Source: an uncultured Alphaproteobacteria bacterium
GTDB taxonomy: Bacteria > Pseudomonadota > Alphaproteobacteria > Rhizobiales > Xanthobacteraceae
Length of the DNA: 64,000 bases
Assembly: GCA_963814885.1 (NCBI GenBank)
Contig: CAWFEO010000003.1
Location: 4,973-68,972, forward strand
Direction: 5' to 3'
Shown here: piece after piece, positions 55,938 through 62,397 of the stretch
How positions within the stretch are numbered: the stretch's first letter is position 1
Layout of the letters: every line of letters starts with the position of its first letter
Position numbers and translations under genes: made by a program
Notes under the pieces: generated by a model
What the model was told of the DNA's origin: nothing
Database searches by the model: none
The model's input: only the letters and a program-made list of their open reading frames with translations

Positions 55938-55953
55938 TGGCGGTCCCGACCGG
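55938..55953 (-). repeat. att direct repeat: copy of the tRNA-Arg 3' end
   Basis: TGGCGGTCCCGACCGG at 55938 versus TGGCGGTCCCGACAGG at 62321; 13-bp perfect, 15/16 identical. Confidence 0.8.
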
Positions 55954-56024
55954 GCTTTACCGGGCCAACTAAAACAAGGTCTTGTCCGCTTGCGGGACGA
56001 GAAACGACTGCACGCAATCGTTAG

Positions 56025-56066
56025 GCTTCCCGCTTCCCGCTTCCCGCTTCCCGCTTCCCGCTTCCT
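56025..56066. repeat. Heptamer tandem repeat (GCTTCCC)x5 plus GCTTCCT
   Basis: Counted directly; the minus strand reads GGGAAGC repeats. Confidence 0.95.
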
Positions 56067-56089
56067 GCCCCGCATTTAGGCGCGGCAGA

Positions 56090-56283
56090 ATGACGTGGGT
56101 CATGGAATTTTGTGGCGCGGGCTGGCCGCGCTCGACCGGCCGATACCGCCGCCGATCAACCGGCAGCCGCGCGACAACATCGCGCCGACCACCATGATCG
56201 ACGCCGCGATCGCGCGCGGCGGCGGTCGCCTGACGCTCGTTGCGATGCGCTGGGGACCAATCCCGTCCTGGTGGAAGAAAACC
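56090..56283 (+). pseudogene. SOS-response-associated peptidase (SRAP/YedK) remnant
   Basis: INRQPRDNIAPTTMIDAAIAR.GGRLTLVAMRWGPIPSWWKKT matches the SRAP N-terminal PRYNIAPT...MRWGLIPSWW pattern; the catalytic MCGR N-terminus and the C-terminal part are absent. Confidence 0.72.
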
Positions 56284-56333
56284 GGGCGCAGCCGGCTACG
56301 GATGCGGCGCCTCGCCCCAGATGGAAGCTCCGG

Positions 56334-57209
56334 TCACTCGAATGTTTCTGAGCCGTGCACCGCGGTGCGATGCATGAGCCGGCGCTGCGGCCAACGGTAT
56401 CCGCCGGCGGCCATGTGCTGGGTGTTGCAGTTGTCCCACATCACCACGTCGCCGACGCGCCAACGGTGACAGTAGATGTGTTCCGGCTGGAGAATGTGAT
56501 CGAAGAGCTCCTGCAAGAGCGGCTGCGCCTCCTTCTCCTCGTCCCAGCCGTCGATCCCGAACGTGTAGGTCTTGTTGACATAGATGCACTTGCGGCCGGT
56601 GAAGGGGTGGCTGCGGACGACGGGATGGGTGACATCGGGCGTTGCGGCCTTCTGCTCCTCGGTCAGGGGCGCACGCTTGTGGTCATGCTCGCGCTGAGCA
56701 CGCTTTCTCTCCTGCGCCCGAAAATACTGATGTACACCGCGCAGGCCTGCAAGCTGCTGCTTCTGCTCTTCGGACAACCGGTCATAGGCGTTCGCCGTAT
56801 TGACGAAGAGCGTATCGCCGAGGGGCTCGCCATTTTCGTCGTGCGGAACTTCCTTGCCGTGGAGCAGCGACATGCGCGCGGGCTTCTTCATGAAACTCAG
56901 ATCGGTATGCCAGTCGTCACCCGCATAGGCGCTGCCGATGCTGCGGTCGCCTTCCTTGATGTTGGAGATCAGATGAATCTGGGGGTAGCCGGGCAAAGCG
57001 TACTCTTGGCGGACATGAACCTCGAGCTCTCCGAAACCCTGGGTAAAGCGGATCTGCTCCTCCGGGCTCATGTCCTGGTCATGGAATATGACCAGACCGT
57101 TTTCGTTCAGCGCCTGCTCGATGCGAGCAAAGGTCTCTTTATCCATGTCCTGAGACAGATCGACGCCGGTGATCTCAACACCGAATGGTTGCAACTGACG
57201 AATCTGCAT
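56334..57209 (-). CDS. TauD/TfdA-family Fe(II)/2-oxoglutarate dioxygenase
   Basis: MQIRQLQPFGVEITGVDL, WHTD (HxD), GDTLF, HPVVRSHP.TGRK.IYVN, WDNCNTQH, RLMHRT. Confidence 0.93.
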   Translation of the reverse strand: MQIRQLQPFGVEITGVDLSQDMDKETFARIEQALNENGLVIFHDQDMSPEEQIRFTQGFGELEVHVRQEYALPGYPQIHLISNIKEGDRSIGSAYAGDDWHTDLSFMKKPARMSLLHGKEVPHDENGEPLGDTLFVNTANAYDRLSEEQKQQLAGLRGVHQYFRAQERKRAQREHDHKRAPLTEEQKAATPDVTHPVVRSHPFTGRKCIYVNKTYTFGIDGWDEEKEAQPLLQELFDHILQPEHIYCHRWRVGDVVMWDNCNTQHMAAGGYRWPQRRLMHRTAVHGSETFE

Positions 57210-57550
57210 TTCAGTCAAGAGCGCACTCCTCCCCGCTTTGCGCCGCAGGTGCGGCTGGCAACTTTCTCGGCCGCTTCTGCAATCCAGGGAATTCGTTCTG
57301 GCCGAGCCTTGGTTGCGACCCAACCCTGGCTCTAACCAAGCCGGTGCTCCACCGCACTCCGTTCCGCGGGGCGTAGCCTCACCGGCTTGTCCCCTCAGAC
57401 CGCCTCGCGGCGACCGGCCAAATTGTTTCCCACCCGGGCTGACCCGGGCCGCTGATTGCGTCGGCTCTATGCCTACGATCGCGACGGAAACCCATTTAGT
57501 CAAACACAATTAGCTGATAACCTAATTCGTATCCCAAATAGGATGCCGCC

Positions 57551-58495
57551 ATGCGTCGCTTGATTATCCACCATTTGGAAGCCTTCCGCGCCATCATGCT
57601 GTCTGGAACGACGACCGGCGCCGCCACCGCGCTTGCCGTGTCCCAGCCCTCAATCAGCCGCCTCCTCGGCGAACTGGAAGGCCAGCTCGGGGTGCAGTTG
57701 TTCGTCCGACAAAAGGGCCGCCTGATTCCGACGCAAGAGGCCGAGTGGCTCTTTAACGAGGCTCAGGATGTCCTGACCAGGCTGGATCGACTGGATACGT
57801 CAGCGAGAGACGTCCGTCATTTCTCCATTGGCGAATTGAGGATCGTGGCGACGCCTCCCCTGGCCCATGGCCTCGTCCCGGAATGCCTCCAGCGCCTACG
57901 CAGCGTCTATCCGGACCTGCGCGTAACCCTGCAGGTGGCGTTCCGACGCGAGGTCAGGATGGTGACCGACTCGCAGAACTTCGATGTCGCCCTCTCGACG
58001 TTACCGATCGACTACCCGGCCCCCGAATCCGAGCGTCTGGTCTCGGTGCGCGGAGTCTGCATCCTGCCCACCGGGCACCACCTCACCGAAAAGGCTGTTA
58101 TCGAGGCGGCCGATCTCGCCGAGGAGCCTTTCATCTCGCCATTGCCGGAGGCGCTTTCCCGCATGCGCCTCGATCTCCTGTTCGATGAGGCGGGCGTGCG
58201 GCGCAAGCGGCAATTGATGGAGTCGCACACGCCCATGACGATCTGCCAGATGGTGGCCGCCGGCCTCGGCGTTGCGGTAACCGATCCCTTCACCGCGCGC
58301 GCTTTCGCTCACCTGGGAATCGCCATCCGGTCCTTCGCTCCGACCTTCGAATATGAGTACGGTTTGCTTTTCCCCTTGCGCAGACCCCGCTCTCGACTGG
58401 CGAAAGAATTCGCAGAGGCCGCGCATGCTTGTGTCGCGGAATATCTCCAGTCGGACACGGAAATGATCGAGAGCACCGGCGCGAGCCAGGTTTGA
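57551..58495 (+). CDS. LysR-family regulator, divergent from the TauD gene
   Basis: LEAFRAIMLSGTTTGAA..L.VSQPSISRLLGELE..LGVQLF.R. Confidence 0.94.
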   Translation: MRRLIIHHLEAFRAIMLSGTTTGAATALAVSQPSISRLLGELEGQLGVQLFVRQKGRLIPTQEAEWLFNEAQDVLTRLDRLDTSARDVRHFSIGELRIVATPPLAHGLVPECLQRLRSVYPDLRVTLQVAFRREVRMVTDSQNFDVALSTLPIDYPAPESERLVSVRGVCILPTGHHLTEKAVIEAADLAEEPFISPLPEALSRMRLDLLFDEAGVRRKRQLMESHTPMTICQMVAAGLGVAVTDPFTARAFAHLGIAIRSFAPTFEYEYGLLFPLRRPRSRLAKEFAEAAHACVAEYLQSDTEMIESTGASQV

Positions 58496-61211: not shown

Positions 61212-61225
61212 CGGTGGCTCCGCCG

Positions 61226-61726
61226 CTAACGAATGGCCGGAAGAATGACTCCGGTGGGGAGCTGGACATTGAATGCCCAGGTGAACAGCGAAAACGTCAC
61301 CGCCGTCAGGGTGACGGCAAACAGCAAGGAAGCTCGCCAAGTCGGCTGGCCGAGCCATTTTACGGTCACGGTTGCGAACAGGATCGTCGCAATGAGATAG
61401 CCGAGCTTATCCATCAGCAGCACGTAACCGATGATCAGGGCCAGGCCCTGCAGGTCACGCATCTCACCGCGTAGCGTGCGCGTTCGTTCCCGTGGCGGCC
61501 TTGCCACCATGAGTGAACCGAGCTTCCGGAAAAAGAACAGCAGCGATAACCCTAAGCCGAGGATGCCCAACAGGATGGGATAAGTCCGCGGCCCCACTAG
61601 ATCCGACATGAGGCCGCCGCGCAGCGTTGTCGCGTACGCCAGATAAATCAGCGACAGCAGCAGGAAAAGAAACGCCAGCGCGTTCTCGCCGCGCCATAGC
61701 TCTCGCAGCCACGCCATAACGCGCAT
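61226..61726 (-). CDS. tctB: TTT small subunit
   Basis: VGPRTYP, LGYLIAT, FNVQLPTG. Confidence 0.88.
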   Translation of the reverse strand: MRVMAWLRELWRGENALAFLFLLLSLIYLAYATTLRGGLMSDLVGPRTYPILLGILGLGLSLLFFFRKLGSLMVARPPRERTRTLRGEMRDLQGLALIIGYVLLMDKLGYLIATILFATVTVKWLGQPTWRASLLFAVTLTAVTFSLFTWAFNVQLPTGVILPAIR

Positions 61727-61762
61727 GTGCTTCGGTCTCCTCCCTGCTCCGGATTTTTATTT

Positions 61763-61823
61763 TCTCGATCTGCGAGATTCTGATTGTCTCGATCTGCGAG
61801 ATTTTGACTATCTCGATCTGCGG
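61763..61823. repeat. 24-bp-period tandem repeat (about 2.5 units) with internal inverted repeat TCTCG-ATCTG-CGAGA
   Basis: Units start at 61763, 61787 and 61811; located 37-97 bp upstream of tctB. Confidence 0.85.
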
Positions 61824-62088
61824 CGGTTCCGGAGCGCCGTCACAGTGAATCCATTAACGGCTAACGACGATGACGAATCAAGTGGAGATGCGAACGAATT
61901 TATCTGGCCGGAAAATCGATGCAGGTGCTGTTGCCCGCATTGTCGCAATAGCAGTCTTCACGTCATCCAAATTCCACTTCGCGATCGTGGGTATTGAGAA
62001 TGAATTGGGTGTTAGGGAAACGCCTACTTGTGAAGCCGGCAGACCTCACGCCGCCATCGCCGGCGACGATGAAAAGCCGTAGCAAGCC

Positions 62089-62231
62089 CGTGAAGCCGCG
62101 CGCGGTTCGCCAAGCGCGACGCGACCGCGCATGAGACCACGGCGATCACCGGCCATTGCTCCCTCGAAGAAGTCGAACGCTACACCCGCGCCGCCCGGCA
62201 GGGGAAACTCGCTAGCGCCGCGATAGCCAAG
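62089..62231 (+). pseudogene. Tyrosine recombinase/integrase C-terminal remnant
   Basis: ARFAKRDATAHETTAITGHCSLEEVERYTRAARQGKLASAAIAK resembles the AGAT.HEI.AITGH.SL.EVERYT box; His 62154, Tyr 62181; frameshifted REAAR upstream; no start or N-terminus. Confidence 0.8.
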
Positions 62232-62320
62232 TGCAAATCGCAGACAGGAATAGCGCCACCGGACCAGGCGGCGGGACAATTCGGCTAAAATACTGGAGCT
62301 TCAACGCCGCTCGGCGAGAG

Positions 62321-62397
62321 TGGCGGTCCCGACAGGACTCGAACCTGTGACCTTCGGTTTAGGAAACCGCTGCTCTATCCAGCTGAGCTACGGGACC
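62321..62397 (-). tRNA. tRNA-Arg (anticodon CCT)
   Basis: GGTCCCG acceptor stem, D-arm GCTC/GAGC, anticodon loop TTCCTAA, T-loop TTCGAGT, encoded CCA; 77 nt. Confidence 0.97.

Follow-up and report, generated by a model that had tools for sequence, protein, structure and literature searches.

Nucleotides 55938–62336 of the window, a stretch of 64,000 nucleotides from the genome of an uncultured alphaproteobacterium, are very probably the immobilised relic of a small integrative element that had inserted at the gene for tRNA-Arg(CCT). The segment displays four of the features by which tRNA-integrated islands are defined: it adjoins the 3′ end of the tRNA gene, a copy of that end recurs at its distal boundary, an integrase gene, here a pseudogene, lies beside the tRNA, and the segment is absent from relatives. 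Between two decayed genes at its edges the island holds an intact cassette for a TctCBA-type transporter, a LysR-family regulator and a TauD-family dioxygenase (Table 1). An earlier note on this DNA had drawn attention to the recurrence of the tRNA end at 55938, to SRAP (SOS response-associated peptidase) and integrase remnants just inside the boundaries, to a TauD-LysR-tctCAB cargo and to a cNMP gene about 97 bp beyond the left repeat. All of these were recovered: the repeat proved exact over 13 of 13 positions and confined to the two boundaries in the 4.07-Mb genome, both remnants aligned with intact homologues, Pfam assigned the five cargo genes as proposed, and the start of the cNMP gene, at 55841, lies 96 bp away from the distal repeat.

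Table 1. Features of the island and of its tRNA target, in window coordinates.
Feature	Position	Strand	Remarks
Distal att repeat, attR-like	55938..55953	+	partial copy of tRNA 3′ end, 13/13 exact, 15/16 overall
GCTTCCC heptamer array, 5.9 tandem copies	56025..56065	.	non-coding relic between att repeat and SRAP fossil
SRAP pseudogene	56103..56300	+	approximately the N-terminal third; Pfam-matched core 56158–56289
tauD-family Fe(II)/2-oxoglutarate dioxygenase	56334..57200	-	288 amino acids, intact; PF02668, E 7.6e-65
lysR-family regulator	57551..58495	+	divergent from tauD; Pfam HTH_1 and LysR_substrate
tctC, periplasmic binding protein of tripartite tricarboxylate-type transporter	58604..59605	-	PF03401
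tctA, large membrane subunit	59682..61211	-	509 amino acids; PF01970, E 8.5e-149
tctB, small membrane subunit	61226..61726	-	first gene of tctB-A-C operon; PF07331
24-bp unit, three copies	61752..61822	.	just upstream of tctB, outside the cassette
Tyrosine-integrase pseudogene	62053..62267	+	reads towards tRNA; homology to intact G018 integrase
tRNA-Arg(CCT)	62321..62397	-	intact, single copy; last 16 nucleotides (62321–62336) form the proximal att repeat

A probable relic bounded by copies of the tRNA-Arg(CCT) 3′ end

The single tRNA gene of the window was identified by ARAGORN, in agreement with Rfam, and is the only one with a CCT anticodon among the 51 tRNAs of the assembly. Its 3′ end faces lower coordinates, that is, the island, and is repeated as a partial direct copy 6,383 bp downstream. 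The last 13 nucleotides of the tRNA gene, read as their reverse complement TGGCGGTCCCGAC, occur exactly at 55938 and 62321, on the plus strand in both cases. When one mismatch was allowed, three matches were found in the window against 0.16 expected, and a search of both strands of the 4,066,476-base assembly returned the exact 13-mer at only these two places. Extended towards the body of the tRNA, the match rises to 15 of 16 positions (TGGCGGTCCCGACCGG compared to ...ACAGG) and then ends. The distal repeat is present at the same place, letter for letter, in the genome of a sister species (see below), in which the neighboring non-coding DNA has diverged. Thus, the repeat is real and the pair has attL/attR geometry around a 6,383-bp insert. 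No further att copy was seen in the window to the left of 55938, the sole other near-match, at 39369, being inverted. The Rfam scan revealed nothing but the tRNA, and a scan for promoters and terminators gave signals at background level. The heptamer array between the distal repeat and the SRAP fossil is reduced to one copy in the sister genome compared with 5.9 copies here, probably through neutral slippage.

Integrase and SRAP pseudogenes

The integrase remnant on its own gave no Pfam match and therefore could be placed only through an intact homologue in another member of the genus, G018. In that genome an identical tRNA gene is followed, after 55–60 nucleotides, by an intact integrase of 353 amino acids (PF00589, E 2e-16). 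In tblastn comparisons window positions 62100–62264 aligned with residues 299–353 of the G018 protein at 69% identity (E 9e-18), a region that includes the GH and ERYT motifs, the latter with the catalytic tyrosine. Positions 62053–62109 aligned with residues 51–69 and are interrupted by an in-frame stop codon at 62080–62082; weaker N-terminal traces possibly reach back to ~61960. Both ends of the gene are kept and residues ~70–298 are deleted, a loss of ~230 internal codons or ~690 bp. In the usual layout of tyrosine recombinases the deleted stretch would hold most of the catalytic residues (Arg, Lys, His-x-x-Arg), and the full catalytic set Arg-Lys-His-Arg-His/Trp-Tyr does not exist in one open frame in the fossil. 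The orientation of the fossil is the same as that of the G018 gene. Integrases on two metagenome contigs, L094 and L095, with 77% and 69% amino acid identity, respectively, to the G018 protein, sit between island genes and tRNA-Arg(CCT)-SNase-M48, which is the same chromosomal site, and the DNA identity of G018, L094 and L095 to window positions 62100–62420 is 74–78%. A more distant integrase homologue (66%) is located at a tRNA-Glu gene. A search for members of the family gave 3,858 homologues at E <= 1e-60. Judged by these alignments, the fossil belongs to an integrase family that is found intact at this tRNA in G018, L094 and L095.

The intact elements of G018, L094 and L095 resemble the island in the tRNA-SNase-M48 site, the integrase family, its orientation and the distance of ~55 nucleotides between the end of the gene and the tRNA. 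They differ in that they keep a full integrase of 351–353 amino acids and a small excisionase-like gene, whereas the island lacks these and has the catabolic cassette. The gene content of these relatives is phage-like: apart from the excisionase-like gene it comprises a DNA methylase (L095 and G018), a weak match to Herpes_ori_bp (L094) and unannotated genes, none of which the island has.

At the opposite edge of the island the core of the SRAP fossil matched positions 28–71 of the 214 positions of PF02586 with an E value of 1.3e-5 and a score of 25.3 bits, which is below the cut-off of 27.1, and the fossil is 63% identical over 60 amino acids to the intact 220-residue SRAP protein of a relative, G019. 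Homology ends at the tauD stop codon. Approximately two thirds of the gene has gone, there is no in-frame MCGR start, and a full-length SRAP domain (~214 positions) with its N-terminal cysteine nucleophile is not present. The protein is distinct from Srap, the "SE-associated recombination auxiliary protein" of strand-biased circularizing integrative elements in Gammaproteobacteria, which is without the peptidase fold (PMC10214605). Srap was considered as a relative and rejected as a name collision with an unrelated protein, the likeness to PF02586 being in name only.

The anatomy suggests how the element entered. The tyrosine integrase of the element would have recombined attP with the last ~16 nucleotides of the single tRNA-Arg(CCT) gene, thereby rebuilding the 3′ end of the tRNA and leaving a direct repeat of 13–16 nucleotides at the far end. 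The decay in place that followed is evident from the sequence: the integrase core is deleted, a stop codon lies in the N-terminal piece, any excisionase gene is gone and SRAP is cut to its first third. The 5.4-kb cassette has been kept under purifying selection, having either ridden in with the element or recombined in later.

Conservation in a sister species and absence elsewhere in the genus

Relatives of the region were sought by DNA searches of 228 genomes of the genus, by a protein search with TauD in 120 genomes of the genus and among GTDB species representatives, and in metagenome contigs. The DNA search found the cassette in one genome besides that of the window, and thus it is absent from 226 of the 228; the best TauD match among the 120 genomes was 41% identical at the amino acid level. 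The second genome is the metagenome-assembled genome MFD02416.bin.1.417 (G226; locus L061), referred to here as the sister, in which the region is collinear at ~89% nucleotide identity with the order M48, SNase, tRNA, integrase fossil, tctBAC, lysR, tauD, cNMP, BTLCP and SulP onwards. The att repeat, too, is found in the sister, the only relative to have these genes at this site, and neither of the findings that the earlier note had named as refuting its reading was made. Its integrase fossil aligns end to end with that of the window at 90.5% and has the same internal deletion, which dates the death of the element to before the separation of the two species. The SRAP fossil in the sister is mostly deleted and so more eroded than in the window, as is expected for neutral decay. 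The island probably could no longer excise from that time, and would now be ordinary chromosome.

Two further relatives with 81–83% nucleotide identity in the flanks, G113 and G061, keep the M48-SNase-tRNA side, and G113 also keeps BTLCP and the genes beyond it, collinear on one contig. In both, ~18 kb of unrelated genes occupy the place of the island and there is no copy of the tRNA end; the insert in G061 is the same as that in G113 over the 20 kb that was fetched. The island is therefore missing from relatives in which the flanks are conserved.

The cassette, its predicted function and its maintenance by selection

The 5.4-kb cassette consists of the tctB-tctA-tctC operon and of lysR divergent from tauD, and all of its frames are open. 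The matches to PF03401, PF07331 and PF01970 were all above cut-offs, and the three genes lie on the same strand with short gaps, forming a complete TctCBA set. In an alignment of the TauD protein with its counterpart from E. coli (1GQW; E 2.8e-45), the iron-binding HxD...H residues and the arginine that contacts 2-oxoglutarate are in register: the motifs WHTD, TQH and RRLMHR correspond to WHTD, TQH and RRIMHR of 1GQW. The likeness to known combinations of TctCBA transporters with TauD/TfdA dioxygenases thus extends to all three Tct components and to the match of TauD with 1GQW. From these assignments the cassette is predicted to let the cell take up an organic acid through TctCBA under LysR control and then oxidize it with the TauD-family enzyme in an Fe(II)/2-oxoglutarate-dependent reaction. 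The imported acid is possibly sulfonated.

Comparison with the sister gave ratios of nonsynonymous to synonymous substitution (dN/dS) of 0.10 for tauD, 0.11 for lysR, 0.16 for tctC, 0.06 for tctA and 0.35 for tctB. Values of dS for the cargo were 0.10–0.49, with 1.16 for lysR. In the flanks dN/dS was 0.07–0.44 and dS was 0.23–0.41, and the cNMP gene had a dN/dS of 0.27. The tctA genes are 98.8% identical at the amino acid level and 97% at the nucleotide level. The range of dN/dS in the cargo together with the intact frames indicates that the cargo has been maintained by selection, and in the main it has been vertically inherited since the common ancestor with the sister.

The first two units of the 24-bp repeat upstream of tctB hold the palindrome TCTCGATCTGCGAGA, which occurs in this exact form only here in the genome. 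The repeat is nearly identical in the sister although nearby fossil DNA has diverged, and it is absent upstream of tctB in L081, a metagenome locus with the same cassette (see below). The repeat may be an operator or promoter that was taken over by the tctBAC operon. Separately, the sister has additional paralogues on another contig (G226:C3; L062), namely a tauD gene with 78% amino acid identity and a divergent lysR-tauD pair with 60% and 69%; the genome of the window has no close paralogues of this type (best 35% at the amino acid level).

Relatives of the cassette outside the island

The same cassette was found at a non-island locus on contigs L081 and L082, from two soil samples (JGI samples 3300062809 and 3300062536), with 86.5% nucleotide identity over lysR-tctB and 81.5% over tauD. 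Its neighbors at that locus are an amidohydrolase gene on one side and a Gfo/Idh/MocA gene on the other. The orthologue of the amidohydrolase gene in the genome of the window (G000) is on a different contig, C42, beside a tRNA-Gly gene, with 94.6% nucleotide identity, and the amidohydrolase is 93–95% identical in all three pairings of the window genome, the sister and L081. The placement and identity of this gene indicate that L081 and L082 derive from a third sibling lineage that is approximately as distant as the sister. Homology between the window and L081 is bounded on one side by the tauD stop codon and on the other by a point 14 bp upstream of the start codon of tctB. In a more distant cluster, L079, tauD is followed by a gene for a Gfo/Idh/MocA oxidoreductase and a second tauD. 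The L081 cluster likewise continues with Gfo/Idh/MocA, and the island copy has neither this gene nor the second tauD, so that it resembles the truncated form of a more extensive cluster.

Divergence within the cassette is mosaic. The lysR genes of the window and the sister are 75% identical at the nucleotide level and those of the sister and L081 are 94% identical, compared to 97% for tctA between the window and the sister. The lysR gene of the window is at ~75% from both the sister and L081, and the lysR-tauD spacer (57217–57491) aligns with neither. This pattern implies that the cassette has recombined, and points to allelic replacement of the lysR region by recombination inside the cassette.

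Weighing the island interpretation and the arrival of the cassette

A number of observations weigh against the interpretation of the segment as the relic of an element with its cargo. The exact repeat is short, at 13 nucleotides. The composition of the island is only mildly atypical and points both ways: a GC content of 60.7% versus 63.8% (9th percentile) and a tetranucleotide distance that ranks among the highest 7% for windows across the genome speak for the relic, but the GC content at third codon positions (GC3) of the cargo, 0.74–0.79, is like that of the flanks. The SRAP gene of G018 is ~9.4 kb from the tRNA, beside ROK and Ku genes and an insertion sequence (IS), which makes SRAP uncertain as part of the element backbone; beyond that gene, a search for a distal att site gave only an 11/13 match (L093:305–320), which is at chance level. 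None of the 228 genomes of the genus showed an empty attB site with the tRNA next to the cNMP gene, although the relatives are too rearranged for this search to be decisive. Two pattern scans of metagenomes, one for the empty site and one for the arm of the distal repeat on the side of the element, produced 0 matches each, which tells neither for nor against the island. Finally, the intact members of the element family (G018, L094 and L095) carry no catabolic cassette, and the L081 copy is at a non-island locus with homology that ends at the gene ends, and thus the element is only one possible carrier of the cassette.

The first two of these points would be accommodated if there were no island, with the 13-nucleotide repeat arising by chance, the fossils representing unrelated debris and the cassette being native, since the exact repeat is short and the GC3 of the cargo matches the flanks. 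This explanation is hardly credible. The 13-mer occurs only twice in the 8 Mb of both strands, and the probability of a chance copy within 10 kb downstream of the tRNA is ~6e-4 (our estimate from base composition, not the result of a tool). Moreover, the repeat is conserved in the sister while adjacent non-coding DNA is not, the integrase family is specific for this tRNA, and nearly all genomes of the genus lack the cassette.

The last point bears instead on how the cassette came to be in the island, and here two histories fit. The element may have arrived with a longer cluster that two deletions later shortened, or it may already have been resident and dead when the cassette entered it by recombination. 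In its full form the second history states that the element came without the cassette and that tctBAC-lysR-tauD from a sibling chromosomal locus later recombined into the decaying element, where it displaced the interior together with the excisionase gene and two thirds of SRAP on the C-terminal side. This account agrees that the segment is an island and differs on whether the genes are cargo of the element. It is a possible, if somewhat doubtful, course of events. The surroundings of the L081/L082 copy, with an amidohydrolase whose orthologue in the window genome is on C42 and a Gfo/Idh/MocA gene as in L079, are in its favor, as are the limits of homology close to the tctB start codon and at the tauD stop codon, the mosaic of lysR and tctA which shows that the cassette recombines, and the lack of catabolic genes in the intact relatives. 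However, an element with a longer cluster would come to look the same after one deletion from the SRAP interior to the tauD stop codon and another near the integrase; no junction repeats, IS or second att site mark a secondary insertion; and any movement between the L081 locus and the island may have gone either way. Thus, the proposal in the earlier note of an element that lost its mobility genes and kept catabolic cargo stands with regard to the decay and to the intact, selected genes, but the L081/L082 copy and the intact relatives make it uncertain that these genes were cargo of the element.

A broader idea, which we regard as improbable, is that this soil clade has small phage-like elements, specific for tRNA-Arg(CCT), that deliver genes in one direction only: such an element would pick up a chromosomal catabolic cassette in a sibling lineage, deposit it beside the tRNA and then die. 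The captured operon would be driven by element-derived DNA, here the palindromic repeat of three 24-bp units, which takes the place of the native region upstream of tctB from 14 bp before the start codon and is nearly identical in the sister.

The cNMP gene and the left boundary

The earlier note also had proposed that insertion of the element separated the tRNA from the cNMP gene. In addition to the failure to find the corresponding empty site, neither G113 nor G061 has a cNMP gene at this locus, and the proposal is not upheld. Orthologues of the gene (60% amino acid identity) are found in G023, G012 and G003 at a locus that is syntenic with contig C8 of the window genome, where the latter has none. 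The DNA that follows BTLCP and the DNA that follows the tRNA differ in nearly every species examined. The cNMP gene may therefore belong to a variable zone rather than be an old neighbor of the tRNA. The 16-nucleotide repeat was not seen as a conserved motif upstream of cNMP orthologues in L031–L034, in which the only matches had two mismatches and none was upstream of a cNMP gene.

An extension of this argument is that the repeat at 55938 bounds only the innermost layer of a larger variable zone. Earlier insertions would have contributed the stand-alone cNMP gene and possibly also SulP-STAS-cNMP, and in an island-free ancestor the tRNA would never have adjoined the stand-alone gene. In agreement with such layers, BTLCP in G113 and G061 is followed directly by the orthologue of window positions 51426–52103 with neither SulP-cNMP nor cNMP there, the orthologues of G023, G012 and G003 are in the C8-syntenic locus that lacks the gene in the window genome, and what follows BTLCP is different in every relative examined. 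On the other hand, no additional att copy lies to the left of 55938, the near-match at 39369 being inverted, the cNMP gene has a normal GC3 (0.81) and a dN/dS of 0.27, and the state of G113 and G061 could just as well result from loss of the genes. On balance the layered zone seems unlikely. As a separate observation, the SulP-STAS-cNMP gene (52110–54341) is absent from the collinear locus of G113 and represents a lineage-specific gain or loss inside a cNMP-rich neighborhood.

tRNA-Arg(CCT) as an integration hot spot

Among the loci that were fetched, at least five members of the genus have other repeat-bounded inserts at this tRNA, with differing cargoes. The inserts in G023 and G015 are bounded by 15-nucleotide repeats and measure 7.0 and 6.9 kb, respectively, the former with a similar integrase remnant; that in G011 is 2.6 kb with a repeat of 18–20 nucleotides. 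In G132 (L074, 2087–13601) an 11.4-kb insert is bounded by a 48-nucleotide repeat from the anticodon loop to the 3′ end plus 11 nucleotides of flank, and in G229 (L077, tRNA on the minus strand at 19038–19114) the insert is 3.6 kb and the repeat matches at 47 of 48 nucleotides. Thus, tRNA-Arg(CCT) is a recurrent integration hot spot in the genus, with att sites of at least two types: a short core at the 3′ end, which is the kind in the window, and a long one that starts in the anticodon loop.

Several other features of this tRNA locus were observed. The tRNA-proximal genes of two of the inserts are metabolic, of the DHDPS family in G132 and for an FAA hydrolase and an OYE-type oxidoreductase in G229, with no integrase beside them. 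In G018 (L013, G018:C3 3302–3344) and G013 (L016, G013:C31 from 3792) an orphan copy of the first 40–43 nucleotides of tRNA-Arg(CCT), up to the anticodon loop, adjoins SNase, and the complete tRNA gene is 7.7 and 19.6 kb past it, respectively. This orphan 5′ half mirrors the usual duplication of the 3′ part and suggests inserts that bring their own tRNA 5′ half; the insert at the G018 copy has an IS630-like transposase and no integrase. The T-arm ACAGG/TTCGAGT/CCTGT is common to the window, G018 and G229, and is also present in G101 with one difference in the D-loop, compared to GGAGG/TTCGACT/CCTCT in the nearest relatives G113 and G061. The ACAGG variant occurs with the integrase family of the window (window and G018), which might reflect matching of the core site or replacement of the tRNA end by the element.

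Comparison with known systems

The island is a clear-cut though unremarkable case of the fixation of acquired genes in bacteria, and the understanding of genomic islands is unchanged by it. It accounts for an extra transporter-dioxygenase cassette in one species pair of a large soil genus, and offers a dated case in which the integrase was dead before the two species split and the cargo is still under selection. For annotation, it adds two pseudogenes, the att sites and a cassette of foreign origin. Well-known elements that are targeted to tRNA genes by tyrosine integrases include the P4 family and ICEMlSymR7A, which inserts at the 3′ end of a phe-tRNA gene. The island differs from such textbook examples in its very small size (6.4 kb), in that genes for conjugation, replication and excision do not remain, and in that neither an empty site nor an excised form is known for it. 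It resembles them in integration at the 3′ end of the tRNA, the location of the integrase beside the tRNA, the short repeat at the far end, the variable occupancy of the site and the decay of the mobility genes.

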